NCBI GenBank assembly: GCA_023249675.1
Contig: JAHFCE010000008.1
Location: 39,246-103,245 of the forward strand
Direction: 5' to 3'
Source of the DNA: Elusimicrobiota bacterium
GTDB taxonomy: Bacteria > Elusimicrobiota > Elusimicrobia > UBA1565 > UBA9628
Length of the DNA: 64,000 nt
Shown: positions 3,357 through 43,585 of the stretch, piece by piece
Position numbering within the stretch: position 1 is the stretch's first letter
Layout: every line of letters starts with the position of its first letter
Program-made: the position numbers and the translations under genes
Notes under the pieces: model-generated
What the model was told of the DNA's origin: nothing
The model's database searches: none
The model's input: only the letters and a program-made list of their open reading frames with translations

Positions 3357-4144
3357 ATCGCCGAGGTCTGGGCGGCGGCTGAGTTCGCCTTCACGGCCAT
3401 CCAGAGGTAGACCGAGGTGATGAGGATCGTGATCAGGCCCGACATCGGGATCGCGAATGGGAGGAAGGACAGAATGATCCGTGCGAGAAGCGCCGTCGTC
3501 TGCGCGTGAATCGCGACCTGATAGAGGGCGCCGAACGTGAGCGCGCCGCCGGCGACCGAGTTCAGGAGCATGGCGAGCAGCGCGTAGAGCAGGCCCGCGA
3601 AGGCCGTCCAGGCCGCGGCCAGCACGAACACGGCGAGGAGCGCGAGGGGATACACGACTTTCTTCAGCGCGCCGGCGGCATCGCGGAAGAACTTGGCGTC
3701 GACGACCATCGGGCGCTCGAGCGCGGCCTTCGACAGGTCGTAAACCTCGATCTTGCCTTGCTGCTGCTCAAGGTAGAGGGCGTTGTTGGTCAGATAGGCG
3801 AGGACCTTCGCGTCCCGCATCGTCTGCAAAGTCACGGGCTCGGTGCGGGCCGTGTCGATCATGACGGCAACCTCGGGAGCTTTGGGGTGCGCCAGGCGCT
3901 TCGCGGCGGGTTCGGAGCTCGTGACCTTGCCCGCGGAGAAGGTCAACGTCGGCACTTCCGCGCCGAGCCAGGCGAACGTTGTATCGACGACCGGTCCGAG
4001 GCGCAGCTGCATCGCGACCCCGCCGCCGATCGTGAACAGGAAGCTGATGAAGAAGAGGTAGAGAACGGTGCGGCTCGTCTTTTCTCCAGCGAAGCGGCGA
4101 TAGGCTTGCGTCGAGGCGATCGAGCCGAGCAGGTCTTGGATCAT
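3353..4144 (-). CDS. Hypothetical polytopic membrane protein
   Basis: N-terminal and C-terminal TM helices flanking a soluble loop. Same operon as the NadD-like gene and NamZ. Confidence 0.45.
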   Translation of the reverse strand: MIQDLLGSIASTQAYRRFAGEKTSRTVLYLFFISFLFTIGGGVAMQLRLGPVVDTTFAWLGAEVPTLTFSAGKVTSSEPAAKRLAHPKAPEVAVMIDTARTEPVTLQTMRDAKVLAYLTNNALYLEQQQGKIEVYDLSKAALERPMVVDAKFFRDAAGALKKVVYPLALLAVFVLAAAWTAFAGLLYALLAMLLNSVAGGALTFGALYQVAIHAQTTALLARIILSFLPFAIPMSGLITILITSVYLWMAVKANSAAAQTSAI

Positions 4145-4173
4145 GTCGACAGTCTAGCAAGGCCGAAGAAGGC

Positions 4174-5337
4174 CTACAAGGGAGCCGGCGGCAGGCCGTA
4201 GAGGCCTTTGCGCCGGGCGTGCTCGAAGGCCGCGTGCGGCATCAAGGTCCATCGGCCGTTGCGCACCTGGGTCGAGGAGGCTTCAAAGCCCACGTTGGCC
4301 AGGAAGCGGACTTCGAGGTCGGTGGGCACGGCCTCGGCGGGACTTTCGCGGCGTATGAAGGCCACCTTCAACTCGTGGAGCGCCGGGTTGGCCTCCCTAT
4401 GCCGGCGGTCGTTGCGCCCCAATTTGGGCAAGGTGTCCGGGTTGCCCCTCTTGTCGACCAGGCGGTAGTGGTCGTCCCCGACCATGTACCAGGCCTCGAG
4501 GTCCTGCCGGGGGTTGAGGGCGAGGAGGCGGAAGATGTTGGTCTCGCCGTCAAGCGTGGTGCCCACGGCGATGGGGGAGTATTCGAAGAAAGGTGCGAAG
4601 AGTTCCAAGACGGCCTGACCCATGGGGTGGCGATGTTCGACGGGGGTCATGGCGGGCTTGCGCGGGTCGTCGCCGGCCAGGACGAAGACCACTTTGTCCA
4701 CGCCCAACTCTCCCACCGCGCGCAGGGCGATGAGCAGGTGGCCCCACTGGAACGGGTCGGCGGCCACAGGGTAAACGCCGATGCGCATGCGTCGCGAAGA
4801 AGAGGGAAGCTCGGGGTCGGAGGCGGAGAGACGGATCTTTGAGGATGGATCGATGTCGCCCTGATCGAGACGGTCTTGGATCTTGGCCAGGGCCCCGTCG
4901 GCCTCGCGGGCCACGGTCTCCAGCAGTTCGGGTTCGGGCTCGGCGTAGTCGCGGGCGGCGGCGAGGAGTTGGGAACGCACGCGCGCGCGGACTTGTGCCG
5001 TCGGCGAGCCTTCGGGCAAGGCGTACTGGGCGTCCAGCTTCCGGAAAAGCGAGGTCAACCGTTCCGGGAGGTCGAGCCTCTCGTGGGCGGCGGCTGGGAT
5101 GGAGGGCGTGGGCGTGAGGGCGGCCGGCGTTGCGGGGGGGAGGGACGCGGCGAGGCCGAGGGCTGGAGACGGGGTCGTGACCGCTGCGGCGGAGGCGACG
5201 GCAGAGCCGGGCAGGACCGGGAGCGCGGGAAGGCCGGCTCGGATCTGAGCGCCGGCCGGGAGGGGTACAGCCAGGATGAGGACGAGGAGGAGCTTGAAGG
5301 GCCTCATGAGGAGAGTAAACCAGGAAACTCCGGTCAT
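4174..5337 (-). CDS. Exported divergent NadD-like (cytidylyltransferase-fold) nucleotidyltransferase
   Basis: The C-terminal roughly 190 aa follow the NadD layout (RIGVYPVAADPFQWGHLLIA...EHR...). The first His of HxGH is replaced (QWGH) and the GG(T/S)F motif is missing. The N-terminus is a signal peptide plus an Ala/Pro-rich linker of about 150 aa. Confidence 0.5.
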   Translation of the reverse strand: MTGVSWFTLLMRPFKLLLVLILAVPLPAGAQIRAGLPALPVLPGSAVASAAAVTTPSPALGLAASLPPATPAALTPTPSIPAAAHERLDLPERLTSLFRKLDAQYALPEGSPTAQVRARVRSQLLAAARDYAEPEPELLETVAREADGALAKIQDRLDQGDIDPSSKIRLSASDPELPSSSRRMRIGVYPVAADPFQWGHLLIALRAVGELGVDKVVFVLAGDDPRKPAMTPVEHRHPMGQAVLELFAPFFEYSPIAVGTTLDGETNIFRLLALNPRQDLEAWYMVGDDHYRLVDKRGNPDTLPKLGRNDRRHREANPALHELKVAFIRRESPAEAVPTDLEVRFLANVGFEASSTQVRNGRWTLMPHAAFEHARRKGLYGLPPAPL

Positions 5338-6736: not shown

Positions 6737-9700
6737 GTGCGGTGTTTGAAGTGTCAATCCGTTAGTCCCGATCAGAACAAATTCTGCGGTTCCTGCGGCA
6801 GTCCCCTGGCTCTCGCCGCGCCGGTCCCTTCCTCGACTGTCCCGGCCTCGGCCCATTCCGAAGAGCGCAAAGTCGTCACCATCCTCTTTGCCGATGTGAA
6901 GGGATTCACCAGCCTCTCGGAACGTTTAGATCCCGAAGAGGTCCGGGATATGATGCAGGAGATTTTTGCGCGTCTGACGGAGGTGATCGGCCGCTACGGC
7001 GGCGTGGTCGACAAATACATCGGGGATTGCATCATGGCCCTTTTCGGGGCTCCGAAAGCGCATGAGAACGATCCGGAGCGAAGCGTTTTGGCGGCCCTGG
7101 GAATGCAGCAGGCACTGCAGAAATTCCGGCGGGAAAAGAATCTGGAGATCGGCATGCGCGTGGGCGTCAACACCGGCATGGTGCTGGCGGGCTATGTGGG
7201 CAATCGTTCCGTGGACTACACCGTCATGGGCGATGAGGTCAATATCGCTTCCCGGCTTGAACAGGCCGCCCCGGTCGATGGAATTTTGATCAGCTCGAAG
7301 ACTTTTTCTCATGTGTCCGATCTATTCGATTGCGAAGCCCTGCCGGCGATCGCGGTCAAAGGCAAGGCGGAGCCCGTGGCCGCCTACCGCGTTTTGAGGG
7401 ACAAGAGGAAGCGCAGCTCTCATGACAAGGTTCGTTCCCGCAGCATCTCGACTCCCATGGTCGGCCGGGACGCCGAGTTAAAACTTATGCTGGAGAGCGC
7501 CCAATCCTGCCGGCAGGCCGGGCAAAGCCGCTTGATTTTTGTCAAGGCTTCCCCCGGCGGCGGCAAGAGCCGTCTGCTCTATGAGTTCCATCGTTGCGAG
7601 AAGGCGCTGGCCGCCCCTCCTCATTTCTTTGTGGGACGGGCTTCGCCCTACACCGTGAACACCTCCTACTATCTTTTCGGTGAAATTCTGAGGGGTCAAT
7701 GCGGCATCGCCGATGAGGACAAGGCGGCGGTCGTGCGCTACAAGCTGCTGGCGGGAGTGGGTTCGGTGATGTCGACGGCCGGCGATGAGGAAATCGAGGA
7801 AACCACCCATCTGATGGCCTCGCTGCTCAATATCGATTTTCCAGGGAGCCCCTACTTGGCGCCTTTGCGCGAGGATCCTATCCAGCTCAGACAGCGCGCC
7901 CACGGGGCCTTTCTGCGGTTTTTCAGATCTTCGAGTTCAGAGCCGACCCTCCTGTATCTCGAGGACTTGCATTGGGCGGACCATCCTTCCCTCGATTTGA
8001 TCGCGGAAATTTATCAGGACAATCGCGAAAGGCCCTTGCTGATCGTGGCTCTTGCGCGGCCTGAGTTTTTCGAGCGCTTCCCTTCCTTCTTGGGGTCTTT
8101 CGCGGGGGTTGAGAAAATCGAGTTGGCGCCGCTGGGTGAGGAGGCCGTGCGCGCTCTCATCCGGGAGCTGCTCAAGCCTATGGGTCTTATTCCGGAAAAC
8201 CTCTATCGTCTTGTCATCCGGAAATCGGAGGGCAATCCCTATTACGTGGAGGAATTGATCAAGAGATTCATCGAGGCCGGAGTGATCGAGAAGGGGGATG
8301 CCGGCTCTCCCGGGCGGGTTTTCCAAGAGAAGCTGCAGCAGATAAAAATTCCAGACACGATCCAAGGCCTTCTCCAGACGCGGCTCGATGATCTCAAAGA
8401 GGAGGAAAAAGGGGTCTTGCAGCGGGCCGCCATCGTGGGGGGAACTTTCTGGCAGCGCGCCGTCGACATTTTGTTGGAGGACCTTGAGGTGTCCAGCACC
8501 GGACCGGTGCTGAGCGATTTAAGCCGGAAAGAGTTTATTTTGCCGTCTAAACACTCCGCGCTCTTCGGCGATGAATTTATGTTCAAGCACGCCCTGCTTC
8601 GGGATGTCACCTATGAGACGATCCTCAAGAAGAAGCGCACCATCTATCATGCCTTGGTGGCCGAGTGGTTGGAAAAAAATTCCGGGGACCGCAAAGAAGA
8701 GCATTTGCCCCTGATTGCCATACACTATGAGTTGGGCCATAAGCCTGAGCAAGCCCGCGAGTACTATTTCTTGGCGGGCGAGCAGGCCCGCAAGACCTTC
8801 GCCAATCACGAGGCCCTGTCTTATTTCGACAAGGTGATTCAGCTGCAGGAGAAGCCCCGCTTTTCTCATTACCGGGTGCGGGGGGCCACTTCAGACGTGT
8901 TGGGGGATTATGAAAGCGCTTTGAAGGACTACCAGGCCATGCTGGGCGTGTGCCGCAATCGCTTGGATGAGGGCGTGGCGTTCAAGCACTTGGCCGAGAC
9001 TCATATACGCCTGGGGCATTATGAGCTGGGGCGGGATTTCGTGGAAAAAGCTCTTCAGGTCGGTCAAGAGCTCAAGGACTGGAAGATGTGCGCCGACAGC
9101 CTCAATCTCAAGGGGCGGATCGATCATCATACGGGCGAGTCGGACCGGGCCCTTGAATGCTACGCCCAATCCATCGCGATCCATCGTCAGAACGGCAGCA
9201 TCTTGGGCGAATCGCGTGCTTTAGGCAACCAGGGGGTGGTTTATGTCCACAGGGGCGAATACGATAAGGCGATTGCAGCCTATCGGGCGGCCCTTGACCT
9301 TGACCGCGCTCAAAACAACAAGCAGCGCATGACCATGATGATGTCGAATCTCGGCGAGTGCTACCAGTTTTTAGGCGCCATGGAGCAGGCCATTGGACAT
9401 CACCAGGAGGCGCTGGCGCTGGCCCGCGGCATCGGCTATAAAATCATGGAGATCGAGACCCTGCGCAACCTCGGCATCGAGCATGTCCATCAAGGGAGAA
9501 TGGAGCAGGGTTTCTCGCTTTTGCGGGAGTCTCTGCGGATGGTGGATGAGGTCCAGGATATGGAGCTGCTTCCCCAGGTACTCTATAGTCTTGGGGAGGG
9601 GCTGTTCCTCGGAGGGCAGAAAGCAGAGGCGTTGACATTGGCTCAAAGGCTGCTGGACATCGCGGAGAAAAACAGCGTTAAGGATTACATCGCCAAGGGC

Positions 9701-9997
9701 CTGCTCCTGAAAAGCTATTGCCTTTCTTTGACCCAGGGACAGGAAGACCTTCGGCGAGGCTTGCAAATCGCCCAGGAGCTTCGGGCCACGAATCTTCTGT
9801 GGGAATTTTATTACGCCCTTTCTTTGGCCAGCGTCGACCTTGTGGAGGCGTTGGGGCATATTCGGGCGGCTAAGGAAAACGTGGATCTGGGGGCCGATTC
9901 CATCGCCGATGCGGATTTAAAAAAGAGTTTTTTGACCTCTCCGCGGGTGGCGGCCATCCTCTCGCGTTTTGATCGGCTGACCCGGGCCACGGCCTAG
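6737..9997 (+). CDS. Zinc-ribbon + class III adenylate/guanylate cyclase + STAND-type AAA ATPase + TPR repeat protein
   Basis: N-terminal CxxC...CxxC ribbon. Cyclase homology domain (VTILFADVKGFTSLSE, GDCIMALFGAP). P-loop (ASPGGGKSRLL). C-terminal TPR-like repeats. Confidence 0.8.
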   Translation: MRCLKCQSVSPDQNKFCGSCGSPLALAAPVPSSTVPASAHSEERKVVTILFADVKGFTSLSERLDPEEVRDMMQEIFARLTEVIGRYGGVVDKYIGDCIMALFGAPKAHENDPERSVLAALGMQQALQKFRREKNLEIGMRVGVNTGMVLAGYVGNRSVDYTVMGDEVNIASRLEQAAPVDGILISSKTFSHVSDLFDCEALPAIAVKGKAEPVAAYRVLRDKRKRSSHDKVRSRSISTPMVGRDAELKLMLESAQSCRQAGQSRLIFVKASPGGGKSRLLYEFHRCEKALAAPPHFFVGRASPYTVNTSYYLFGEILRGQCGIADEDKAAVVRYKLLAGVGSVMSTAGDEEIEETTHLMASLLNIDFPGSPYLAPLREDPIQLRQRAHGAFLRFFRSSSSEPTLLYLEDLHWADHPSLDLIAEIYQDNRERPLLIVALARPEFFERFPSFLGSFAGVEKIELAPLGEEAVRALIRELLKPMGLIPENLYRLVIRKSEGNPYYVEELIKRFIEAGVIEKGDAGSPGRVFQEKLQQIKIPDTIQGLLQTRLDDLKEEEKGVLQRAAIVGGTFWQRAVDILLEDLEVSSTGPVLSDLSRKEFILPSKHSALFGDEFMFKHALLRDVTYETILKKKRTIYHALVAEWLEKNSGDRKEEHLPLIAIHYELGHKPEQAREYYFLAGEQARKTFANHEALSYFDKVIQLQEKPRFSHYRVRGATSDVLGDYESALKDYQAMLGVCRNRLDEGVAFKHLAETHIRLGHYELGRDFVEKALQVGQELKDWKMCADSLNLKGRIDHHTGESDRALECYAQSIAIHRQNGSILGESRALGNQGVVYVHRGEYDKAIAAYRAALDLDRAQNNKQRMTMMMSNLGECYQFLGAMEQAIGHHQEALALARGIGYKIMEIETLRNLGIEHVHQGRMEQGFSLLRESLRMVDEVQDMELLPQVLYSLGEGLFLGGQKAEALTLAQRLLDIAEKNSVKDYIAKGLLLKSYCLSLTQGQEDLRRGLQIAQELRATNLLWEFYYALSLASVDLVEALGHIRAAKENVDLGADSIADADLKKSFLTSPRVAAILSRFDRLTRATA

Positions 9998-17227: not shown

Positions 17228-17701
17228 TCAAGGATTCCTCGTCGTGGCTTCGACGAGGCGGATCGCGTCGCGGCCTGACTCGCGGACCTCATCGGGGACG
17301 TGGGGGAGCCCCAGTTCGTCATGAGTGTGCCAGCGGATGTCGTCGCTTTCGTCCGGACGGTGGGTGTGGGCGCCGGCCTTGGCGCGCAGGTAGTAGATGA
17401 AGTCAATGTGGTGGTTGTGACCGGGGATTTCCTCGATCTGCACGCGCTGGGGCTCGTGCAGGGACTCGACGCGGCCGTTGTGTATGATCGGCGCGCGCGG
17501 GGGCGTCATGAACTCGGCCTCGAGGCCGGTCTCCTCTAATACCTCGCGCAGAACGCCCTCGTCCGTCGTTTCACCGTCCTCAATGTGTCCGCCCGGAGGC
17601 AGCCACATTCCAAGCTTTTTGTGCTTGAGGAGGAGGGTCTTGCCGTCGCGGACCAGATAGCCGGTGGCGACGAAGCAGTAGCGCCGCGGCGGTGCGCTCA
17701 C
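17228..17701 (-). CDS. NUDIX hydrolase
   Basis: Nudix box GGHIEDGETTDEGVLREVLEETGL. Confidence 0.8.
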   Translation of the reverse strand: MSAPPRRYCFVATGYLVRDGKTLLLKHKKLGMWLPPGGHIEDGETTDEGVLREVLEETGLEAEFMTPPRAPIIHNGRVESLHEPQRVQIEEIPGHNHHIDFIYYLRAKAGAHTHRPDESDDIRWHTHDELGLPHVPDEVRESGRDAIRLVEATTRNP

Positions 17702-18498
17702 GCGGGCAACTCCCGCGCCCAGGCGGCGAGAGCGGCGGCGAGTTCCGCGGGTTTGTCGAGCGGTATGTGGTGATGGGCGTCCATGATCTCAATGCCGCGG
17801 CCGCGCGGCAGGGCCGCGACGACTCGGGTCATGGCCTCGCGGGGCAGGATCGAGCTGTGCTCGCCGCGCACGATCAAGGCGTCCGCGGAGATTTTCGCAA
17901 GCTGCGGCCACACCGGGCCGTACGGAAAAGCAAACGAGCGCCAGTCGAACTTCCAGGACCAGCCGCGGGGGCCTTGCCGCACGCCGTGGCGCCCGAGCGC
18001 TCGGAGAGCGGCCGCGTCGAGCAAGGTGCCGGGAGGCTGGAGGCGGAACTTGGCGAGCATCGCTTCTTCATTCTCGTAAATCGGCTGGGGGCGCGAGCGG
18101 GTTTTTTCGTACTTGCGCTCGCGCGACGCGTAGACATCCGGCAGAAAGTCGATCGCGCAGACTCCGCGCAGGTGAGCGCTGCGCCGCTCGGCGTAGTCGA
18201 GGGCGATGCGCGCGCCCATCGAGTGCCCCACGAGAATGAAGCGCTCCCAGCCGAGGGCCTTGCGCGCGCTCTCGATATCGTCCACCCACGCCGAGCCGGT
18301 ATAGGCTTCGTTCTCGAGCCAGTCGCTGTCGCCGTGGCCGCGGAAATCGAGCGCGACCGCGTGGAACACGCCCTTCCAGAGGGGAGCGACCGCATCCCAC
18401 CAATGCGTGTGCGCGGCCATGCCGTGCGTCAGGAGGACCGGGACTCCGGGGCCGCCCCAGTCGCGCAGGTGGACCGCGCCGGCCTTGCGGCTCGTCAC
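17698..18498 (-). CDS. Alpha/beta hydrolase fold protein
   Basis: GHSMG nucleophile elbow. Conserved HG oxyanion region. Confidence 0.7.
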   Translation of the reverse strand: MTSRKAGAVHLRDWGGPGVPVLLTHGMAAHTHWWDAVAPLWKGVFHAVALDFRGHGDSDWLENEAYTGSAWVDDIESARKALGWERFILVGHSMGARIALDYAERRSAHLRGVCAIDFLPDVYASRERKYEKTRSRPQPIYENEEAMLAKFRLQPPGTLLDAAALRALGRHGVRQGPRGWSWKFDWRSFAFPYGPVWPQLAKISADALIVRGEHSSILPREAMTRVVAALPRGRGIEIMDAHHHIPLDKPAELAAALAAWARELPA

Positions 18499-21400
18499 GG
18501 CGCCTTGTCGGCGGGGACGATCGCGGCCTGATAGATCTCGTCGTAGGTCCGCACGGCCGTGAGCTTGACGGCGTCGCGCACCTCCTTCGGGATACCCTCG
18601 AGGTCCTTGAGGTTGGCGAAGGGGAAGATCACTTCCGTGTAGCCCATGCGGTGCGCGGCCATGACCTTTTGCTTGAGGCCGCCGATCGGCAGGACGTCGC
18701 CGCGCTTGGTGATCTCTCCGGTCATCGCCAGGCCGGCAACGACCGAGCGTCCGGTGAGATCGCTGAGGATCGCCGTGACCATCAGGCTGCCCGCCGAGGG
18801 CCCGTCAATCTTGCCCGCCGGCGTGATGTTGATGTCCATGTCGATCTTCGTGAAGTCGATCTTTTCGAGGCCGAACTTGGCCGCGTTCTTCCTCACGTAG
18901 GCGTACGCGTTCTTGGCCGAGTCCTCGATGTCTTGGCCGAACTGCTTGCGCAGGGTCAACTTGCCGGTGCCGGGCTCGCTCCAGGCCTCGACGTTCAGCG
19001 TGGAGCCGCCGTAGTCGTTGACCGCGAGTCCCGTCGCCACGCCGACGCCGTTCTGCGCCATCTGGCGCGGGCTGAACTCCTCGCCGCCGAGGTAATGCGC
19101 GATGTCTTTTTCGTCGACGACGCCGGGGACGTTCTCGCCGCGCGTCTCGATCCAGGCGGAGATTTTGCGCAGGACGGACGCGACTTTCTCGCGCAGCCCG
19201 CGCACGCCGGCCTCCATCGTGTAGCCCTCGATGAGGCGGCGCAGGGCCCCTTTCGTCAGCGTCGCCTCAGCAGCTTTGAGACCCGCCTCCTCGAGCTCCT
19301 GAGGCACGAGGTGGCGTTCGGCGATCGCGATCTTTTCGAGCGTCGTGTAGCCCTCGAACTCGATGAGTTCCACACGGTCGCGCAGGGGCCCGGGAATGTT
19401 GCTCAGCTCGTTGGCGGTGACGATGAACAGCACCTCGGAGAGGTCATAAGGAACGTCCAGGTAGCGGTCGCGGAAGGTGTTATTCTGCTTCGGGTCCAGG
19501 ATTTCGAGCAAGGCCGCGGTCGGGTCGCCGGCGTTGCTGTTGCGGCCCATTTTGTCGACCTCGTCCATCAGCATGACGGGATTGACCGTGCCGGCGGCCC
19601 TCATCTGGCGCATGATCTCGCCGGGCATCGAGCCGACGTAGGTCCGGCCGTGTCCGCGCAGCACCGTCTCGTCGTGGACGCCCCCGAGCGAGAGGCGCAC
19701 GAACTTTCGGCCGAGGGCTTGGGCGATCGCGGCGGCAATCGAGGTCTTGCCCACGCCGGGGGGGCCCGTGAAGGCGATGATCGCACCCTTCTTGGACCCC
19801 GTCCTCTTGCGCACCGCCAGGAACTCGAGCACGCGCTCCTTGACCTTCTCCAGGCCTGCGTGATCCCGGTCGAGCGTCCCGCGCGCCGCCGCGATGTCGG
19901 TCACGTCCTCCGTGCGCCGGCTCCAGGGGACGTCTATCAGCCACTCAATGTAGGTCCGAACCTTCTGCGTCTCGGAGTCCCTCGGGGCCATCTGCGCCAT
20001 CTTCTCGTACTCGCGCGTGGTGATCTCTTGGATCGCCTCGGGCATGCCGATCGCCTTCATCTTCGCCTGGAGGGCCTCGATCGAGTCGAGGCTTCCGCCC
20101 CGGCCGTCTTTGGGGTCCGCGGCTCGATGCTCCGCCGGCTTTTTCAGCACGCGAACCCACGTCGAACGGTTGCCGCGTTTGCTGAACTTTAGATTTTCGA
20201 TGAACGCCCGCGTCAGCTCCGCGCCGCGCGCGAGCTCGGCGTCCTTCTTGTCGCCGACCGCTTTCCGGAGCACTTCGAGCGTCGCGACCGCGTCGAGGCC
20301 CGCGGCGAGGTCGGCGCCGATGTTCTGGCGCCGTTCCGCGGCATAGTGGACGTTGGACAGCAAGGACAGGCAGAGTCGGACGACGTCGAGCGGGTCTTTG
20401 GAGAGGGAGCTGCCCAGGGTTTTCTCGTACAGACGCAGCGAGCTCGTGATCGCCTCGAGCTTCGCATTGCCGAGCGCGATCGAGACCTGTTCAAGCGCCT
20501 TGGACTTCGGGCTCAGGCCCTTGTGTGCGGAGTACTTCTTGAAGACCGCGTCGAGGCGCGCGACCGCGCGCAGGTGGCTGGCGGCGTCGGGCGCGTTGGC
20601 GAGCTTGATCGCGTCGATCGCCTCGTTGTGCAGCTCCCAGATGTTGTCGGAGCTGTTCCCGGCCTGCTCGATCAGATCGAAGTAGACGACCTTGCCGTTG
20701 GCGAGAACGAGAAGCTCGCCGCGCGCGGCCAGAGCGAAGATCGCCGCGTTCATCTGCGGCATGTCGAGGCCCAGGGCCTTGCCCGCGCGAGTGAGCGTCT
20801 CGGGCGCGACGGTCTCGCCGGCGGAGGTATGCGCGCGGATCTGTGCGGCGAAGGCCGCGGTCTGCTGGCCCGAGGGCGTCCACGATTCCTCGGGCGCGGG
20901 CGTTTTGGACGTCGGCCCTTCATATAGGAAATCGCGGGCGTCGAATTGTTCAAGCAGAAGGAGTGCCGCGATATAGCCGTCGGCGACCTCGTCCTCGGCG
21001 GGGCGGCCGTCCTTTTTCAGCGGATCGAGCGAGTCGACCAAGGCGACGAGCTTGCGGTGCACGCGCGCGGGCATCGGCGGGACGTAGCCGGCCTGATAGG
21101 TCGCCGTCTTGAGCCACGCGAGGGCTTCCGCCAGGTCGGCGACGCGCTCTGTCAGCTTCGGCGTCAGGGTTTTGAGGCTTTCGAGGTCCTTCTTATGCGC
21201 GCCGAGGAACCCCGAGAAGAACTCGAGCATCGCATTGGCGCGCAGGACCTTGGCTTCCTCGAGCTGGGGAAGCGTCTGGCCCGGTTGGCCGGCCTTCTCG
21301 TAAGCGGCGACGGCCCGGTCCGCTTGGGCGACGGCGCGGGCGTGGTCGGCGGGATTGGCGCTGTTCAACAGCGCGACGGCGTTGCTGGCGAGGACGTCGG

Positions 21401-22103
21401 CGGCGTGTTCGGGGGCGGGCGCATGGGCGGGGGCGTCTACGCGCGCGCGGAAACTGAAGTAAACCGTGTCTTTGTTGTCTCGCATCGCGAGATGGCCCTC
21501 TTGGAGTAGCTCGGTGAACAAGGTTCCGGTTTTCTCCGGGTCGAGGCCGAGCCTCGCGCCGATCTCGCCGACCTTCGCGTAGGTCGCGATCGTGCCCGGC
21601 GCCGTTTCGTTGCGGATGCCGGCGAGGAGCCCGGCCTTGGCGTCCGGCGGCGCGTTCCCGCCGGGGGGCGCGGTCTTCTCGGAGCGAGGCAGGGCCTTGG
21701 GGCCGGAGCTCTCGGAACCGGCGACGTCGAAAGCCGCGGCGCGGCGTTCGGACGCGCCTTCAAACGCGCGGCCGGCCTGCGCCTTCGATTCGCTACCGCT
21801 TGACGTCGGCGTGAGCGTTACGGTTTGGCGCGCCGCGCCCGCGAGCGCCGCGCGCGGATCGGGGGTTGCGGCCTGCGCCGCTGTAGGCGCCGTGAGCAGA
21901 GATGGGGTCAGCCCCGCCGCGGACGCAGTGAGCGGCGGCGTGTTCGTCGCGGGGGCCTCAAGTCGCGGGAGCGCGAGCGACATGGTGAGTCCCGCTTCGC
22001 CCGCGACGGGCACACGCGCGACGCCCGTTGCGAAGGCAGGCCCGGGCGCCGCCATGGAAAGGGCGAGGGCGGCCGCCAGGCATCGGCGGGTGAACCGTCT
22101 CAT
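18495..22103 (-). CDS. lon: LonA-type ATP-dependent protease with atypical N-terminus (signal-like segment, A/P-rich linker, two winged-helix-like module repeats in place of the LON N-domain)
   Basis: AAA+ (GPPGVGKTS) and protease Ser (DGPSAGS). LonA linker motif (YIEWLIDVPW). N-terminus is MRRFTRRCLAAALALSMAAPGPAFA followed by low complexity. Confidence 0.85.
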   Translation of the reverse strand: MRRFTRRCLAAALALSMAAPGPAFATGVARVPVAGEAGLTMSLALPRLEAPATNTPPLTASAAGLTPSLLTAPTAAQAATPDPRAALAGAARQTVTLTPTSSGSESKAQAGRAFEGASERRAAAFDVAGSESSGPKALPRSEKTAPPGGNAPPDAKAGLLAGIRNETAPGTIATYAKVGEIGARLGLDPEKTGTLFTELLQEGHLAMRDNKDTVYFSFRARVDAPAHAPAPEHAADVLASNAVALLNSANPADHARAVAQADRAVAAYEKAGQPGQTLPQLEEAKVLRANAMLEFFSGFLGAHKKDLESLKTLTPKLTERVADLAEALAWLKTATYQAGYVPPMPARVHRKLVALVDSLDPLKKDGRPAEDEVADGYIAALLLLEQFDARDFLYEGPTSKTPAPEESWTPSGQQTAAFAAQIRAHTSAGETVAPETLTRAGKALGLDMPQMNAAIFALAARGELLVLANGKVVYFDLIEQAGNSSDNIWELHNEAIDAIKLANAPDAASHLRAVARLDAVFKKYSAHKGLSPKSKALEQVSIALGNAKLEAITSSLRLYEKTLGSSLSKDPLDVVRLCLSLLSNVHYAAERRQNIGADLAAGLDAVATLEVLRKAVGDKKDAELARGAELTRAFIENLKFSKRGNRSTWVRVLKKPAEHRAADPKDGRGGSLDSIEALQAKMKAIGMPEAIQEITTREYEKMAQMAPRDSETQKVRTYIEWLIDVPWSRRTEDVTDIAAARGTLDRDHAGLEKVKERVLEFLAVRKRTGSKKGAIIAFTGPPGVGKTSIAAAIAQALGRKFVRLSLGGVHDETVLRGHGRTYVGSMPGEIMRQMRAAGTVNPVMLMDEVDKMGRNSNAGDPTAALLEILDPKQNNTFRDRYLDVPYDLSEVLFIVTANELSNIPGPLRDRVELIEFEGYTTLEKIAIAERHLVPQELEEAGLKAAEATLTKGALRRLIEGYTMEAGVRGLREKVASVLRKISAWIETRGENVPGVVDEKDIAHYLGGEEFSPRQMAQNGVGVATGLAVNDYGGSTLNVEAWSEPGTGKLTLRKQFGQDIEDSAKNAYAYVRKNAAKFGLEKIDFTKIDMDINITPAGKIDGPSAGSLMVTAILSDLTGRSVVAGLAMTGEITKRGDVLPIGGLKQKVMAAHRMGYTEVIFPFANLKDLEGIPKEVRDAVKLTAVRTYDEIYQAAIVPADKAP

Positions 22104-25100
22104 TTCTTCCTCTCTGCCGTGAACGCGCCCTTGGCGGCGTTCCAGTCCACAGTGATCGCATCGCCCTGAGCGATGCGGTCCTCGAGCTCGGCCGCGACGA
22201 TTGCGTCGGGCAGCTTGTGGTCGACAATCTGCTTGAGCGGGCGGGCGCCATATTTCTGGGCTTCGGTGCGCTTGAGAATCTCGGCGCGGGCGCCGGGCGT
22301 GAGCGTCATTCTCATGCTGCGCTTCTCCCGGAGTTGGTTTTCGAACTTCTTTAGGAGGAGATCAAGAATCTTTTCCATCTGGGGCCTGCCGAGGTCTTTG
22401 AACACCACGACCCCGTCGTCCTCGCCGACGCGGCCGATGAGTTCCGGCCGCAGCGCGGCCCGAAGCGCGGCAAGGTACTGCGCGTGCCGCGCGGCCGCGG
22501 CTTCCTCGGGCTGCTCGCTCCCGGAGCGAAAGCCCATGTGGGGGCGCCCGGGCGAGTCGACGCCCTCGTCGTCTCCGGCGAGCGCGCCGCCGATGTTCGA
22601 GGTCATCATGACGATCGTGTGGGAGAAGTCCACTGTGCGGCCACGGCCATCGGTGAGCCGCCCGTCCTCAAGGATTTGCAGGAGGATGTTCAACACCTCG
22701 GGGTGAGCCTTCTCGATTTCGTCGAACAGGATGACGGAGTACGGGTTGCGGCGGATTTTTTCGGTGAGCTGGCCGGCCTCCTCGTAGCCGACATAGCCGG
22801 GGGGCGCTCCGACCATGCGGGAAACCGCCTCCTTGCCTACGTACTCGCTCATGTCCAGGCGAACCATCTTATTCTCCGAGCCGAACACGATCCTCGCCGT
22901 TTGGCGCGCGAGCTCGGTTTTGCCCACCCCTGTCGGGCCGAGGAAGATGAATGCGGCGGTCGGCTGTTTGGGATCGCGCAGGCCCATGCGGCCGCGCTGC
23001 ACGCCCTTGGCCACCTTTGAGACCGCCTCATCCTGGCCGATCACGGCCGCGCCGAGCTTTTCGGGCAGGTTCTTGAGCCGGTCCTTTTCCGCGGCGCTGA
23101 TCTCGCCGGCGGGAATACCGGTGCGCCGGGAGATTTCCTGGGCGATGTCTTCCGGAAGGACCTCGCGCCGCGCCTTCGCGGCGCCTGACTGTGCGGCCAA
23201 GGAGGCCCTCATCTTGACTGCGACGCTCGCGTCGTCGAGCAGGTCGAGGGCCGAGTCGGGAAGGTTGCGGTCCGTGATGTAGCGCAAGGCCAGCGCCACG
23301 ACGGCCTTCACCGTTTCCGCGCCGATCACGACTCCTTGCTTTTTTTCGTAGATCGACTTGACGCCCGCGACGATGTGTTCAGCCTCCTCCTGAGTTGGAG
23401 GCAGGAGCTGGATGGGGTTGAAGCGGCGGGCAAGCGCGCCGTCCTTCTCGATCGTGCGGTACTCATCCAACGTCGTCGCTCCGATCAGCGAGATCGAGCC
23501 ATCGGCGAGGGCGGCCTTCAACATGTTGGCGGCGTCCTGCGTGCCTTCCTTGATGGCCCCGGCTCCGACGAGCGTGTGGATCTCGTCGATGAAGAGACGG
23601 ACCTTTCCCTGCGAGTCGCGGGCCTCTTGTATGATTTTGACCATGCGTTTTTCGAAGTCGCCGCGAAAAGTCGTGCCGGCGACGACCGCGGCGAGGTCGA
23701 GGTGGATGATGTTGACGCCCTCAAGTTCGGGGATCTTTCCGTCGACGATCATCTGCGCCAAGCCGTTGACCATCTCGCTCTTGCCCACGCCCGGCGCGCC
23801 GATGATGAGGGGATTGGTTTTCTTGAGGCGCAGCAGGGTCTTCACGATCTGGAGCATCTCGGACTCGCGGCCGATCAGCGGGGGCAGTTTGCCCTCGACG
23901 GCGAGGCGCGTCACGTTGGCGCCGTAGGCGTTGAGCGCCGTGTAACTCTTGTCGTCCTTCGCGATAAGCGGGAACAGCCCGCGGCGGATATTGGCGACCG
24001 GGATCAGGTCGATGTCGTTGCCGGGAAGCGGCGCGCCCTTGTGGAATGCCTGGAACAGGGCCCAGCCGGCGGACATGGCCTTCTGCTGGTCGGGGTCCCA
24101 GTGCTGGAACGGCGGGAGCTTCACGGCGAATTTGGCGAGTCGAGCCTGTTTGTCGGCATCGAGCGGCGTTGGATCGGCCTGATTAGCGGCATAGAATTGG
24201 CCCTCGAGCGCCTTCAAGACGTCATCGATGAACGCGTGCGCGTTCTGGTTGACCGGGTCCGCGGGCTTCACGGGGAGCTTCTTGCCGTACGCGGAGAGCA
24301 CGTCGCGCGAGAGTTCGAGGGCCGCGTTCTTATAGAGGATGGCCACTTCGGCGCGGGCCGCGTCGGCGCCGGCGGCCGCGAGGAGGCGCAGGGCTTCGCC
24401 GAAAGAGGCGAGGGCGAGCACGTGAGAATCCGGGCTGCGGCCGTTGAGCAGGTCGATGCCCTCGATTGTCTTTTCGTTGGCCCCATCGAGCAAGGTGTCG
24501 TTGGCCCGGGCTCCGTCGTCGCGCTGGACCGCTTGGCTGTAAATGTAGACGCGGCCGGAGAAAAGACGGACGAGCTGGCCTTCCTTGGCGAGCTCGTCGA
24601 CCGCCCGGTTGCCCTGGGCGGCCGGCACGCCGGCGCCGATCGCGAGCTGGTTGATGCGCATGCGGTCGAGGGCCTCTCCGGGCTTCACATTTTGGGCCAG
24701 CGCGTCGCGCATCGCTTGGACCTGGTCGGCGGTCGGCTTGGCCGGTGTGGGGTCGCTTGCGGCGGCGGCGGAGCGCAGCGGGGTCAGAGCGGAGAGCACG
24801 TCGAACCTTTCCCCGCCTTCGAAGGCGGCGGCGGCGGCGGACTTGGACGCGCTGGGACTCAGCGCCGGAGTGAGGTTCTGGGCCGAGAGCGCGGCGCCAT
24901 CGAGAACGGCCTTGGCGGCGGCCGGCTGGCCCTGGGCGGGGATCGCGGCTGCAACGAGACCGGCCGGCATCGGAGCGGAAAGGGGCGTCTCCGCGGGGCT
25001 TGCGGGTGAAAGCGTCGCGGGAAGTTTCGGCGTCATGGAGAGGCCGCCGAGCGTGGCGCCGATGGCGCCGACTGTTCCGGAGGCGGGGACCGCGGCCCCC

Positions 25101-25225
25101 CGGGCTTTGCCCACCTGGGCGAAGGCCTCGTGATTTCCTGGAAGCGCGACGAGGAAGGCGGCCAGAAGAGAGCGGGACAGGAGGGTCGAGGGGCGGCCGT
25201 TCATCTTTTTCATGAGTGTCTCCAA
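22100..25225 (-). CDS. ClpA/ClpB-family double-AAA+ unfoldase with atypical N-terminus homologous to that of the adjacent Lon
   Basis: D1 (GAPGVGKSEMV) and D2 (GPTGVGKTELAR) AAA modules with a short inter-domain linker (ClpA/C-like). N-terminal signal-like segment MKKMNGRPSTLLSRSLLAAFLVALPGNHEAFA. 4-nt overlap with lon. Confidence 0.85.
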   Translation of the reverse strand: METLMKKMNGRPSTLLSRSLLAAFLVALPGNHEAFAQVGKARGAAVPASGTVGAIGATLGGLSMTPKLPATLSPASPAETPLSAPMPAGLVAAAIPAQGQPAAAKAVLDGAALSAQNLTPALSPSASKSAAAAAFEGGERFDVLSALTPLRSAAAASDPTPAKPTADQVQAMRDALAQNVKPGEALDRMRINQLAIGAGVPAAQGNRAVDELAKEGQLVRLFSGRVYIYSQAVQRDDGARANDTLLDGANEKTIEGIDLLNGRSPDSHVLALASFGEALRLLAAAGADAARAEVAILYKNAALELSRDVLSAYGKKLPVKPADPVNQNAHAFIDDVLKALEGQFYAANQADPTPLDADKQARLAKFAVKLPPFQHWDPDQQKAMSAGWALFQAFHKGAPLPGNDIDLIPVANIRRGLFPLIAKDDKSYTALNAYGANVTRLAVEGKLPPLIGRESEMLQIVKTLLRLKKTNPLIIGAPGVGKSEMVNGLAQMIVDGKIPELEGVNIIHLDLAAVVAGTTFRGDFEKRMVKIIQEARDSQGKVRLFIDEIHTLVGAGAIKEGTQDAANMLKAALADGSISLIGATTLDEYRTIEKDGALARRFNPIQLLPPTQEEAEHIVAGVKSIYEKKQGVVIGAETVKAVVALALRYITDRNLPDSALDLLDDASVAVKMRASLAAQSGAAKARREVLPEDIAQEISRRTGIPAGEISAAEKDRLKNLPEKLGAAVIGQDEAVSKVAKGVQRGRMGLRDPKQPTAAFIFLGPTGVGKTELARQTARIVFGSENKMVRLDMSEYVGKEAVSRMVGAPPGYVGYEEAGQLTEKIRRNPYSVILFDEIEKAHPEVLNILLQILEDGRLTDGRGRTVDFSHTIVMMTSNIGGALAGDDEGVDSPGRPHMGFRSGSEQPEEAAAARHAQYLAALRAALRPELIGRVGEDDGVVVFKDLGRPQMEKILDLLLKKFENQLREKRSMRMTLTPGARAEILKRTEAQKYGARPLKQIVDHKLPDAIVAAELEDRIAQGDAITVDWNAAKGAFTAERKK

Positions 25226-25318: not shown

Positions 25319-26236
25319 CTAGTCCTTTTGGGTCTTGGGGCCTGGAGCCCGGTCGTTCCAGTCGACGTTCTTGAAGCGGCGGTGCGCCCACAGGGCTTGG
25401 CCGGGCACGGCGCGCATCCAGCCCTCGACATGATCGGCCAGGCGCTGATTATCGGCCTTGTCGTCATCAGTGAGCGTGATCTCGGGCTCGATGATGATCC
25501 GCACGCGGCCGTCGGCCTCGCGTTTCGGGAGCACGGGCAGGATCGTCGCTCCCGTGCGGCGCGCGAGCGGCGCGATCGCGGCCAAGGTGTGCACCTGGAC
25601 TCCGAACAGGCGCATCGGTTCGCCCATCGGCGGGGGCATGTACTGGTCCATGACGAACACGACCCCGCCGCCGTCGCGAAGGGCTTTCATCACGGTCGCA
25701 ATCGTGCGCGGCTGGTAGGCGGCCTTCACGCCGAGCGAGAGGCGGGTCCTCTCCATCCAGTCGTGAAGCCACGCGGGCTTGAGCCGGCGCGTGACGATGG
25801 TGACGGGAACGCCCCTGATCGCGGCGATCGCGGCGGCGAACTCCCAGTTCGCGATGTGCGTGCCGAGAAACAGCACGCCCTTGCCGCGCGCCCGCGCCCG
25901 CTCCCAGTGCTCGTCGCCCTCGACGGTGACGTTGCGCCGGACGTAGGAGCGGAAGTGGCCCGGCAGAGGCGCGAACATGTGCGCGAGCTCGAGCACCATC
26001 CGGCCGTAGTGCTCGTAATTCTCGCGCAGCAGGAGCCGGCGCTCTTCCGCCGTCCGCTCCGGGAAGCAATGCGCGAGGTTGTCGCGCGCGACGCGGACGT
26101 GCCTCGTCTCGAAGATGAGCGCCAAGCGGCCCAGGAAGCCCCCCAAGGACATTTCCCAGGAGCGCGGCAGGGCGGCGACGAATAGTCCCATGCCGTGCAG
26201 CGGGACGCGCAGCAGCAGCGCGAGGATCGGATTCAC
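25319..26236 (-). CDS. lpxL: Lipid A biosynthesis secondary acyltransferase (LpxL/HtrB family)
   Basis: N-terminal TM anchor and LpxL family pattern (about 305 aa, HX4D-like region). Confidence 0.68.
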   Translation of the reverse strand: MNPILALLLRVPLHGMGLFVAALPRSWEMSLGGFLGRLALIFETRHVRVARDNLAHCFPERTAEERRLLLRENYEHYGRMVLELAHMFAPLPGHFRSYVRRNVTVEGDEHWERARARGKGVLFLGTHIANWEFAAAIAAIRGVPVTIVTRRLKPAWLHDWMERTRLSLGVKAAYQPRTIATVMKALRDGGGVVFVMDQYMPPPMGEPMRLFGVQVHTLAAIAPLARRTGATILPVLPKREADGRVRIIIEPEITLTDDDKADNQRLADHVEGWMRAVPGQALWAHRRFKNVDWNDRAPGPKTQKD

Positions 26237-39060: not shown

Positions 39061-39264
39061 CGGCCGGGCGGTTCGAGTCGTTGCCACCCGGTCCCCAGGC
39101 CCAGACGGCGGCCAAGACTCCCAGGGCCCAGATGCCTACGACTCCGAGGACCATGAGGGGTACGAGACGCAAAATGCTTTCCCGTACATTTTCAGTGTTG
39201 TTGACGAAAATATACCGCACGACATTGAGCTGCTCGGCGGTTCTACTTGGGTCCTATGGCGGTC

Positions 39265-40309: not shown

Positions 40310-43300
40310 TTATTGAATAGGCCCATTGAGCGCTGGGCGCAGGGTCGCTTCGTCGCCGACGACGATCGTGACCATCTTCGCGGGGTCGAGGTATCGTTGC
40401 GCGGCCCGGCGGATATCCTCGGGCGTGAGCGCGTTGAGGCGCTCAAGATACGACGCCATTTCGAGCTCGGCGGACTGCCTGTTGCGCTCGTAGCCGGCGA
40501 GCGCTGCGGCTTGGGAGTCGATCGAGGAGAGCTTGAGGAGGAAGAGGCCCGCGAGGTAGCGTTTGACCGCGCCGAGAGTCTGCTCGGTCACGAGGCCCTC
40601 GCGCAGGGCCGCGATTTCCTTTTTCATCTCGGCCAGCGCGGGTGCTGCGACTTCGTTGCGGACCTCGGCCGATGCGGTCCACAGCAGGCCTTTCTCCATA
40701 ATCTGCGGGTGCGAGTACGCGCCGTAGGTGTAGCCTTTTTCGACGCGGAGGTTGAGGAACAGACGCGAGGTGGCCGAGCCGCCGAGAATCTGGTTCATAA
40801 CGAAGAAGGCCAGGTAGTCGGGGTCGGTCGGCGCAAGCTCGATTGCCTGCGAGATCGTGAGGTTCGCCTGCCGAGAGTCGGGGCGATCCACGAGCAGTTG
40901 GCGCGCTTGCCCATGTTGGGCAAGCGCGGGAATCTCGGTTTTGGAGGCGTCCCCGGTCCAGCCGGCGAAGGCGGCCTCCAATTCCGCGCGAAGCGCAACG
41001 GGATCGGCGTCGCCGGCGAGCACGAGAGTGGCGCCACGGGCGGCGAGGGCTCGGCGCGCGAACGCGAGCGTCTGTTCGCGCGTGATGGCTTGAATCTGCT
41101 CGTCGCTGAGCGCGGGCTTGCCGTATGGATGCGCGCCGAACAACTCGGCCTTGATGCGCTCAGAGGCCATGAAGTCGGGCTTGAAGCGCTGGGTCTTCAT
41201 CTCCTCGAGCTTGTTCTCTCTCCAGAGGGCGACCTCGTCCTCGGGAAAGGTCGGCCGGGAAAGCACGAGTGCGAGTTCTTTAAAGAAGGACGCGGCGTTG
41301 CGCGACAGGCCCGCGGCCTCGATGGCGAGGCTCTCGAGTCCGCGACCGATCTTGAGCTTCCAGCCGAGGCCGGAGAACGCGGCGGATAGCGCGCGCGCGT
41401 CGCGTCCTTCGGCGCCTTGAAGCAGGAGTTCCGAGACGGCGGCGGACAGGCCGTCCTCGCCGGGACCTTCCGAGGTTCTTCCAGAGGGGATCGAGAGGCG
41501 TGCCTCAAGCAGCGGCAGGCGCGCGTCGCGCACGAACACGACCTTCAGGCCGTTGGCAAGCGTGAAGCGTTCGAGGCGCGGGATCTGGGCCGGGCGCTGG
41601 GCGTCGATCTCGGGGCGCGGGTCGCCCTCGGGCCGCGGCTTCGGATCGGGGATTGGGGGTGTGGCGATATCAGGAGCTAACGCCAGTCCGGGCGTCGGCC
41701 GGGCCTCGAGGACGGCGCGAGGCTTGCTCATGATCCACTCGTTGACCGCGCGCTGCACGTCCGTCACCGTAATGGACATGAGCGCTTCAAAGTCGCGCGC
41801 AAGGTTCGCTGGGTCGCCGACGAGGGCCGCGTAGGAGCTGAGCGTCTTGGCGCGGTCGATGAGCTGCTCGAGGTCCTTGGTCCAGGAGAGCTCGATGCGG
41901 GCCTTGGCCGCGGCGAGGCGCTCGGGCGTCGTGTCGCCCCACACGAACTGGGACATGACGACGTCCACGAGCTCGAGCGCGGCGCCCGCGGCGACACCGG
42001 GCTTGAGCGGCATCATGAGCCCGAACAGATCGGGCCCGCCGGGGTTGAACGGCCCGCTCCACCATGGGAAATTGCTGTCCACGCCGAGCGCGAGCTTGGA
42101 CTGCTTGACCAGGGTCTGATACAGCGGGCTGTCCTCGCCGGCTCCCAGAATCTCACCGAGCACGGTCAGTGCCCAGTAGTCCTTGGTGCCGCGCTCGGGC
42201 GCGCGCCAGGCGGCCATGAGCAGGGGGACCTGTGCGAATTTGTCCTCGACCACGCGGCGGGTCTCGCCGGCCATGGGCGGCTCGGAGAGATCGGGCGCCG
42301 GTGCGATCACGTGAGGCTGCAGCGGCCCGAAGAAGCGCTCGGCGAGCTGCCGGGCCTCGGCCTCGTCCACGTCGCCGGCCAAAGCGAGCACCGCGTTGTT
42401 TGGCGCGTAGTGCGCCTGGTAGAACGCGCGCACGTCTTCGAGCCGGGCGTTGCGGATGTCCTCCATCTCGCCGATCGTCGTGTGCCGGTTCTCCCATTTG
42501 GAGAAGGCGGCCTCGGCCATGCCCGCGTCGCGCGCTTTGGCGTAGGGTGCATTCGTGTGGCGCAGGCGCATCTCCTCGAGCACGACCTGCTGTTCGAGCG
42601 CGAGCGCCCTCTCGTCCACGTTCAAGGTGCTCATGCGTTCGGCCTCGGCCCAGAGCACTGTTTTCAGCGCGCTTTTCGGAACGACCGAGTGGTAGGTCGT
42701 GTTGGTGCGCATGGTGTACGCGTTGCGCACGCCGCCGTTGGACTCGATGAGCTGGGAAATCTCGCGCGGTTTGAGGCTTTTCGTGCCCTGCGCCATCAGG
42801 TGCTCGAAGAGATGGGCGAAGCCGGAGAGACCTTGGGTCTCATGCTGAGACCCGACCTTATAAGTGACGGAGACGGCGACGACGGGACTCGTCTTGTCCG
42901 TGTGCACGACGACGGTGAGGCCATTGGCGAGATGGAAGGTCCTCACCGGCAAGGAGAGGCGGGGCGCGGCGGCCGATGGTTCCGGCGCGAGCACGGGGGG
43001 CGCGTCATCCCTCGCCGGCTTCTTTGCGGCTTGACCATCGAACGTCTCGCTCGGGCGCTCCGGCTGGCTGGGTGCCGCGGCTGCGGACAGCAGCACGGGG
43101 AGCGCTCGCGCGGCGGCCGGTGCGGGGACGGGGGAAGGATTGACGAGAGCGGGAGAAAGAGACAACAACGATGGAACGGCGACGGAGGGGGCGCTCCAGG
43201 GGAGACCGGAATTCTGAGCGGGGAGACCGACGGCAGGGATCAACGACGTTTGACCGGCACGCGCGGCCACGACCTGCGCCCGAGCCAACGGCTGGAGAGC

Positions 43301-43336
43301 CAAAATCAGAACGAGGCAGGCGCTGAGGATCTTCAT
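40310..43336 (-). CDS. Secreted tandem M16 (pitrilysin/insulinase-like) zinc peptidase
   Basis: Inverted zinc motif HLFEHLMAQGT in the first unit, degenerate second M16 unit. Start reset to MKILSACLV, because the longer ORF runs through tRNA-Cys. Confidence 0.75.
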   Translation of the reverse strand: MKILSACLVLILALQPLARAQVVAARAGQTSLIPAVGLPAQNSGLPWSAPSVAVPSLLSLSPALVNPSPVPAPAAARALPVLLSAAAAPSQPERPSETFDGQAAKKPARDDAPPVLAPEPSAAAPRLSLPVRTFHLANGLTVVVHTDKTSPVVAVSVTYKVGSQHETQGLSGFAHLFEHLMAQGTKSLKPREISQLIESNGGVRNAYTMRTNTTYHSVVPKSALKTVLWAEAERMSTLNVDERALALEQQVVLEEMRLRHTNAPYAKARDAGMAEAAFSKWENRHTTIGEMEDIRNARLEDVRAFYQAHYAPNNAVLALAGDVDEAEARQLAERFFGPLQPHVIAPAPDLSEPPMAGETRRVVEDKFAQVPLLMAAWRAPERGTKDYWALTVLGEILGAGEDSPLYQTLVKQSKLALGVDSNFPWWSGPFNPGGPDLFGLMMPLKPGVAAGAALELVDVVMSQFVWGDTTPERLAAAKARIELSWTKDLEQLIDRAKTLSSYAALVGDPANLARDFEALMSITVTDVQRAVNEWIMSKPRAVLEARPTPGLALAPDIATPPIPDPKPRPEGDPRPEIDAQRPAQIPRLERFTLANGLKVVFVRDARLPLLEARLSIPSGRTSEGPGEDGLSAAVSELLLQGAEGRDARALSAAFSGLGWKLKIGRGLESLAIEAAGLSRNAASFFKELALVLSRPTFPEDEVALWRENKLEEMKTQRFKPDFMASERIKAELFGAHPYGKPALSDEQIQAITREQTLAFARRALAARGATLVLAGDADPVALRAELEAAFAGWTGDASKTEIPALAQHGQARQLLVDRPDSRQANLTISQAIELAPTDPDYLAFFVMNQILGGSATSRLFLNLRVEKGYTYGAYSHPQIMEKGLLWTASAEVRNEVAAPALAEMKKEIAALREGLVTEQTLGAVKRYLAGLFLLKLSSIDSQAAALAGYERNRQSAELEMASYLERLNALTPEDIRRAAQRYLDPAKMVTIVVGDEATLRPALNGPIQ

Positions 43337-43427
43337 GTCGGAAGATTTTAGCCTGGTCCCCGGGTGCTTCGTGTGGGACCGATGGCCCAGAGAGCGCGCG
43401 GAAATGGGCCTATGCCAAAGACAAAAG

Positions 43428-43504
43428 TGGAGGTGCGAGCGGGATTCGAACCCGCGAATAATGGTTTTGCAGACCATCCCCTTGGACCGCTTGGGTATCG
43501 CACC
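43428..43504 (-). tRNA. tRNA-Cys(GCA)
   Basis: 77 nt. Acceptor GGTGCGA/TCGCACC, anticodon loop CTGCAAA, T-loop GGGTTCGAATCCC, CCA encoded. Confidence 0.85.
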
Positions 43505-43585
43505 GAAATGAGCCTTCCCAACGGGAATTCTACTAATTTTTTGGCTGCCCATCCCGGATCGCGCCATGATCCCGCCGCCGCGCCG

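Follow-up and report, generated by a model that had tools for sequence, protein, structure and literature searches.

Lon and the Clp unfoldases are the main protein-disposal machines of bacteria, and their N-terminal domains decide which substrates are taken. A 64,000-nucleotide stretch of contig JAHFCE010000008.1 from an uncultured Elusimicrobiota bacterium (positions 39,246 to 103,245; hereafter, the window) encodes a ClpC/ClpA-type unfoldase and a LonA protease, both of which begin with an export-signal-like segment. What is the N-terminal region that these two proteins share, and on which side of the membrane would ATP-dependent machines bearing it work? We conclude that the window pair is a variant of the known AAA+ proteases and that the novelty lies in the shared N-terminal region, whose module, predicted to combine a winged helix with a helical domain, represents a domain family not described before. 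The source genome, recovered from a groundwater metagenome, consists of 2.60 Mb in 54 contigs with an estimated completeness of 98.6% and a guanine-cytosine (GC) content of approximately 0.66.

A coupled unfoldase-protease pair with intact cores

On the minus strand of the window, the gene of the ClpC/ClpA-type unfoldase is followed by those of the LonA protease and an alpha/beta hydrolase, with a 4-nt overlap at both junctions (Table 1). The open reading frame of the unfoldase occupies 22100–25225 (-), and its likeliest start is the ATG at 25213, which has a GGAGA Shine-Dalgarno sequence 5 nt upstream. Incorrect start codons were ruled out as the origin of the signal-like segments, because this ATG has its own Shine-Dalgarno sequence and the ATG of Lon is coupled through the ATGA overlap. 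A scan for promoters and terminators found no element specific to the operon. For this region no RNA run is on record, which is uninformative as to expression. The closest relatives bearing these genes are all metagenome-assembled genomes (MAGs) of Elusimicrobiota, and the operon is conserved in one of them (L002). Judging from the gene sequences, the unfoldase and LonA are a lineage-specific, translationally coupled pair.

The Lon core corresponds to residues 666–1194 and matched TIGR00763 of NCBIfam with 630.5 bits (cut-off, 608). Inspection of the motifs showed that Walker A, Walker B, and the Ser-Lys dyad are all intact. In the Clp protein, Pfam and NCBIfam placed a ClpA/ClpB core at approximately residues 424–1027, the NCBIfam ClpA match covering positions 161–733 of 734. 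End-to-end alignments were obtained with both ClpA (1ksf/6uqe) and ClpC. When it was aligned with Thermus ClpB (1qvr), the alignment jumped about 80 chain residues at the M-domain, and an identity as ClpB/Hsp104 was rejected because the coiled-coil M-domain of D1 is absent. A putative ClpP-binding loop, HMGF (22520–22546), aligned with the VGF position of ClpC, with methionine in place of isoleucine, valine, or leucine. We take this HMGF, or [IM]GF, site in the ClpA-like protein to be the position of the ClpP-binding loop of ClpC.

Besides the pair, the genome has genes for a canonical full-length Lon, whose core is 49% identical to that of the window Lon, for a canonical ClpB, and for two ClpPs, both of which lack a signal. 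The co-occurrence of canonical Lon and ClpB suggests that the window Lon and the ClpA-like protein are old, specialised paralogs.

The N-terminal region shared by the two machines

In a Pfam search at E ≤ 10, neither LON_substr_bdg (PF02190) nor Clp_N (PF02861) matched either N-terminal region, and the only matches were weak and below threshold (DUF3253, Sigma70_r2, F-93_WHD, and PaaX). Common to both machines is an N-terminal segment of the type MRRFTRR…PGPAFA or MKKMNGR…AFA. Inspection and a hydropathy scan of these segments showed an n-region with a charge of +4, an alanine-rich h-region of 10–12 residues, and an AxA cleavage site. The segment is followed by a linker rich in alanine, proline, threonine, and serine that contains the conserved motif KLTPKxGGxESK..AG.AFEG..ERR; the corresponding sequences are AGRAFEGASERR…FDV in residues 110–127 of Lon and AAAAFEGGERFDV in residues 131–143 of the ClpA-like protein. 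When the source genome was searched for other proteins with this signal and linker, only the Lon/ClpA-like pair was found, together with a chance match on C5 (E = 0.34).

Behind the linker lies a module of approximately 250 residues, present once in the ClpA-like protein and twice in Lon. BLASTP detected the similarity between Lon modules 1 and 2 with an E-value of 5e-8 and that between the Lon and ClpA-like modules with an E-value of 1e-5. What the original prediction had described at this locus was all confirmed in the sequence: a Clp and Lon operon with a 4-nt gene overlap (ATGA at 22100–22103), the absence of the canonical N-domains from both machines, a basic n-region and hydrophobic stretch ending in AFA at both N-termini (MRRFTRRCLAAALALSMAAPGPAFA and MKKMNGRPSTLLSRSLLAAFLVALPGNHEAFA), a shared AFEG..ER..FDV linker motif, and a homologous module in one (Clp) or two (Lon) copies, all three module cores that it quoted being present. 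Its description of the unfoldase as ClpA/B-type is right as to ClpA, in the ClpA/ClpC-like sense given by the end-to-end ClpA alignment, and wrong as to ClpB.

A profile search with the module collected 46 distinct proteins (cluster representatives), and every named source was a member of the Elusimicrobiota. The module occurred in 12 of the 301 Elusimicrobiota genomes sampled, all 12 of which belong to two families of one order. Most members, including those from relatives of the window genus, consist of signal, linker, transmembrane segment, two modules, and a ClpA/ClpB or Lon core. The first gene of the operon represents a second type, in which signal, linker, and a single module precede the ClpA-like core. 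The same architecture is found fused to either Lon or ClpA/ClpB cores in relatives, and the two genes co-occur in L002. Two further types carry no AAA+ core. One protein of 1044 residues from Elusimicrobiota (P0021) has a signal, a transmembrane segment, and four modules; two proteins of about 300 residues (P0031 and P0035) are made up of the module only and have no signal. The existence of these AAA+-free proteins indicates that the module can stand on its own as a putative adaptor unit, also in the cytoplasm; as far as the sequences tell, this unit has been built into several AAA+ machines. P0021 itself is possibly a membrane-anchored adaptor and may partner with the module-bearing proteases.

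In the complete genome of a Lineage IV member of the Elusimicrobiota from an amoeba culture, assembled from Nanopore reads (CP096137, L004), the homologous Lon genes are frameshifted (5740–7965/6798–9056 and 3861–5210). These frameshifts are probably homopolymer errors and not real pseudogenes.

Topology and the side of the membrane

In most relatives, the linker is followed by a hydrophobic segment, LWPxAxxxGVAAxSAFLLYKFG. By analogy with FtsH, a cleaved signal combined with this segment would form a stop-transfer anchor that leaves the modules and the AAA+ core in the cytoplasm. The segment has been lost in the window Lon (P0001), in its 75%-identical relative P0003, and in P0012, and it is never present in the ClpA-like proteins with one module. 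A hydropathy scan found no transmembrane anchor in either window protein (P0001 and P0002). An assembly artefact was rejected as the cause of the loss, since the contigs of two runs agreed with 0 differences.

Tentatively, and at somewhat less than even confidence, we favor adaptor-directed proteolysis close to the envelope, in which the motors face the cytoplasm as in the majority of the family that has the transmembrane segment. The operon would then encode a dedicated, co-translated destruction pair, namely, a ClpC/ClpA-type unfoldase that probably feeds cytoplasmic ClpP and a LonA protease, together with the coupled hydrolase. The canonical N-terminal substrate- or adaptor-binding domains would have been swapped for the lineage-specific signal-like segment, the Ala/Pro linker, and one or two modules. 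The modules are most likely a shared substrate-recruitment (adaptor) domain, through which both machines would take the same clients. In most family members, the transmembrane segment after the linker would tether the machine at the inner membrane and leave its ATPase and protease on the cytoplasmic side, where envelope-proximal substrates would be encountered; the adjoining lipid A acyltransferase hints at a tie to membrane lipid biogenesis. The window pair, which has no transmembrane segment, would still act on the cytoplasmic side, because its sites for ATP hydrolysis and proteolysis are both intact and conserved and the probable ClpP partner is cytoplasmic. Its N-terminal segment may be an inefficient signal, a membrane-binding helix, or a route to co-assembly.

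Several points weigh against this proposal. By the standard rules, a Sec-type signal without a downstream transmembrane segment predicts export of the whole protein, and the window Lon and ClpA-like protein both keep a good Sec-type signal of this kind. The proposal gives no explanation for a failure of the window signal segment to act. Membrane anchoring is deduced by analogy from the relatives and not from the window proteins, and substrate binding by the modules is likewise a presumption.

Of the alternatives, the one that fares best, although it seems improbable rather than probable, is that the window pair comprises soluble cytoplasmic machines with the modules as built-in adaptors, the signal-like segment having persisted after loss of the transmembrane segment, without serving export, either as a vestige or as an amphipathic helix that binds the membrane. 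The intact active sites and putative ClpP loop fit this idea, as does the existence of cytoplasmic proteins that consist of the module only. A vestige, however, would be expected to decay, whereas the signal segments are strongly conserved and retain the same MAAPGPAFA as the relatives with a transmembrane segment.

A slightly lower probability was assigned to export of the pair, with cleavage of the signal and translocation by Sec or Tat to the periplasm or beyond. The N-terminal segments are classic signal peptides that are translated and conserved across homologs, the pair has no transmembrane segment, and the contigs support this loss as real. A twin-arginine-like motif, SRRxLA, is seen in several homologs, and the genome encodes TatC and three secretins of the type II secretion system or type IV pilus type (C25, C9, and C1). 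FHIPEP, a family of the flagellum and type III secretion system, was not found in the genome. The periplasm, however, is essentially free of ATP, so that extracytoplasmic ATP, such as that of a host-cell cytoplasm, would be needed. The export predicted for ATP-dependent machines with intact active sites is therefore paradoxical, and these sites are intact even across the divergent homologs without a transmembrane segment (P0001, P0003, and P0012). The only ClpPs of the genome are cytoplasmic. As regards a host, a close relative was obtained from an enrichment culture of amoebae (PMC9476967), but the source genome is unreduced (2.6 Mb) and of groundwater origin, and a search for the ATP/ADP translocase (TLC) gave one weak partial match below the cut-off, showing no sign of an energy parasite. 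Doubtful to a greater degree is the full version of this scenario, in which the exported ClpA-like protein and Lon would be driven by ATP outside the cytoplasm, for example in the cytoplasm of a host cell that the bacterium inhabits or into which it secretes, and the modules would pick the targets. The original prediction had noted that, under the positive-inside rule, the bulk of both enzymes would lie outside the cytoplasm, and had called this paradoxical. This agrees with what is predicted for the window variants, which lack the transmembrane segment, but not with most relatives, in which that segment would put the motor in the cytoplasm.

Fold of the module

A single module was modelled by AlphaFold2 from an alignment of 16 sequences with a predicted local distance difference test (pLDDT) score of 86 and a predicted template modelling (pTM) score of 0.86. 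The model consists of a winged helix with three helices and a beta-hairpin (residues 1–68) followed by a bundle of five helices. In VIA-align, the winged helix resembled those of MCM8, GntR, CRP, and FadR with Z-scores of 7–8, and many winged-helix families were similar; as modelled, it is of a generic type. The aligned part covered the winged helix only, leaving the helical bundle with no structural match. Foldseek and the ESM Atlas gave GntR/FadR-FCD regulators in the top ranks with weak scores (template modelling scores, 0.25–0.35). No significant match was obtained when a two-module model was compared with the Protein Data Bank (PDB) by Foldseek, and when the module alignment was used as a sequence profile against the PDB, the sole match was 3hgf (E = 0.023), which is not meaningful. 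An identity of the module with the canonical Lon or Clp N-domain was rejected, as it had no Pfam match and its modelled fold appears different, with the structural alignment confined to the winged helix. The winged helix that had been suspected in the module was thus supported by the model, and so was the view of a dedicated unfoldase-protease pair: the two proteins are co-translated, and a shared N-terminal module replaces their canonical N-domains.

The nucleic-acid recognition also entertained for the module was not supported: that it is a DNA-binding winged helix-turn-helix, by which the pair would degrade DNA-bound proteins or be recruited to DNA as GntR and FadR are, is very unlikely despite the Z-scores and top-ranked GntR/FCD regulators, because neither the recognition helix nor the wing is basic (acidic or neutral, with net charges of -2 and 0), the helical domain has no FCD match in VIA-align, no DNA-binding family was significant for the module in the Pfam search, and the machines bear envelope-targeting features.

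Comparison with known systems

The window Lon has the same AAA+ and S16 core, Walker A/B motifs, and Ser-Lys dyad as LonA (E. coli Lon, endopeptidase La), but the LON N-domain (PF02190) and the helical arm are replaced by the signal-like segment, the Ala/Pro linker, and two modules. Similarly, the unfoldase shares with ClpC and ClpA the D1 and D2 rings without an M-domain and has [IM]GF at the presumed position of the ClpP-binding loop of ClpC, whereas their Clp_N domain, which binds the adaptors MecA and ClpS, is replaced by the signal segment, the linker, and one module.

Most members of the module family would be comparable to FtsH in that an N-terminal extracytoplasmic segment and a transmembrane helix would keep an AAA+ protease attached to the inner membrane on its cytoplasmic side. 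FtsH differs in being an M41 zinc protease with two transmembrane helices, a periplasmic domain, and no winged-helix adaptor, and the window pair has no transmembrane helix. Archaeal LonB is, like the relatives with a transmembrane segment, a membrane-anchored Lon without the LonA N-domain; its transmembrane helices are inside the AAA+ domain, whereas in the module family any anchor lies at the N-terminal end and is accompanied by an adaptor module. Mitochondrial Lon, Hsp78, and chloroplast Clp are also Lon or Clp machines with an N-terminal targeting extension, but they are imported into organelles that contain ATP, whereas the Sec-like signal here would lead to an ATP-free compartment unless a transmembrane segment stops the transfer. 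The GntR/FadR regulators, which were top-ranked in the structural searches, likewise combine a winged helix with a helical domain behind it. They differ from the module in several respects: the alignment is confined to the winged helix, the module has an acidic recognition helix and no sequence homology to them, and it occurs as a fusion to proteases.

Gene neighborhood

The alpha/beta hydrolase beside the Lon/Clp pair is also found in L002 and in CP096137, and it probably acts in the same pathway as the pair. The position of the lipid A acyltransferase upstream is kept in L002 (716–2086). The coordinates of all features are given in Table 1.

Table 1. Features of the Clp/Lon operon and adjoining genes, in window coordinates
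Feature	Position	Strand	Basis
Lipid A biosynthesis acyltransferase, LpxL/HtrB-like (Lip_A_acyltrans, E = 4e-49), directly upstream of the ClpA-like gene	25319–26236	-	Pfam
ClpA/ClpC-type AAA+ unfoldase gene, double-ring	22100–25213	-	Open reading frame, Shine-Dalgarno
ClpA-like signal-peptide-like segment MKKMNGRPSTLLSRSLLAAFLVALPGNHEAFA, AxA site, next residues QV	25118–25213	-	Sequence; conserved in homologs
ClpA-like Ala/Pro-rich linker; AFEG..ER..FDV motif at 24797–24835	24731–25117	-	Sequence
ClpA-like module, winged helix and helical bundle (predicted); winged-helix core ALDRMRIN.. at 24629–24673	23966–24730	-	Homology to Lon modules; module profile
ClpA/ClpC-type D1 and D2 AAA+ core, no M-domain; Walker A/B intact in both rings	22100–23965	-	Pfam/NCBIfam, alignment
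ATGA overlap of ClpA-like stop and Lon start, translational coupling	22100–22103	-	Sequence
LonA protease gene	18495–22103	-	Open reading frame, Pfam/NCBIfam
Lon signal-peptide-like segment MRRFTRRCLAAALALSMAAPGPAFA, next residues TG	22026–22103	-	Sequence; MAAPGPAFA conserved in homologs
Lon Ala/Pro/Thr-rich linker; AFEG motif at 21741–21776; without the transmembrane helix of relatives	21657–22025	-	Sequence, contigs
Lon module 1, winged helix (residues 150–217) and five-helix bundle (predicted)	20910–21656	-	AlphaFold2, VIA-align
Lon module 2, second winged helix and helical domain (predicted)	20109–20909	-	Internal repeat, AlphaFold2
LonA AAA+ domain; Walker A AFTGPPGVGKTS at 19740–19775	19119–20108	-	Pfam/NCBIfam, motif
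Lon S16 protease domain; catalytic Ser (DGPSAG, 18777–18806) and Lys (GGLKQK, 18663–18683) intact	18495–19118	-	Pfam, motif
GTGA overlap of Lon and alpha/beta hydrolase	18495–18498	-	Sequence
Alpha/beta hydrolase, 266 residues, Abhydrolase_1, coupled to Lon via GTGA	17698–18498	-	Pfam

Long GC-rich open reading frames on the plus strand inside the protease genes (e.g., 18651–20192 and 20346–20927) are high-GC artefacts and not genes. Elsewhere in the window, there are further very large open reading frames at 47199–51578 (-), 6737–9997 (+), and 40310–43567 (-), encoding 1459, 1086, and 1085 residues, respectively. As to the lineage, magnetotaxis is known in some Elusimicrobiota, and genomes related to UBA1565 feature in surveys of magnetotactic bacteria (bioRxiv 10.1101/2022.07.08.499144).

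Implications

One order of the Elusimicrobiota appears to have swapped the N-domains of Lon and Clp for a common, new winged-helix adaptor module combined with targeting of the membrane or export type. The arrangement of the genes in a coupled operon with a hydrolase, beside a lipid A acyltransferase, points to dedicated, envelope-related proteolysis for quality control or regulation. Should the window pair prove to be both exported and active, it would be the first ATP-dependent Lon/Clp system known to work outside the cytoplasm. Such a system would require a rethinking of where ATP-driven unfolding occurs in bacteria and would bear on the lifestyle of this lineage.

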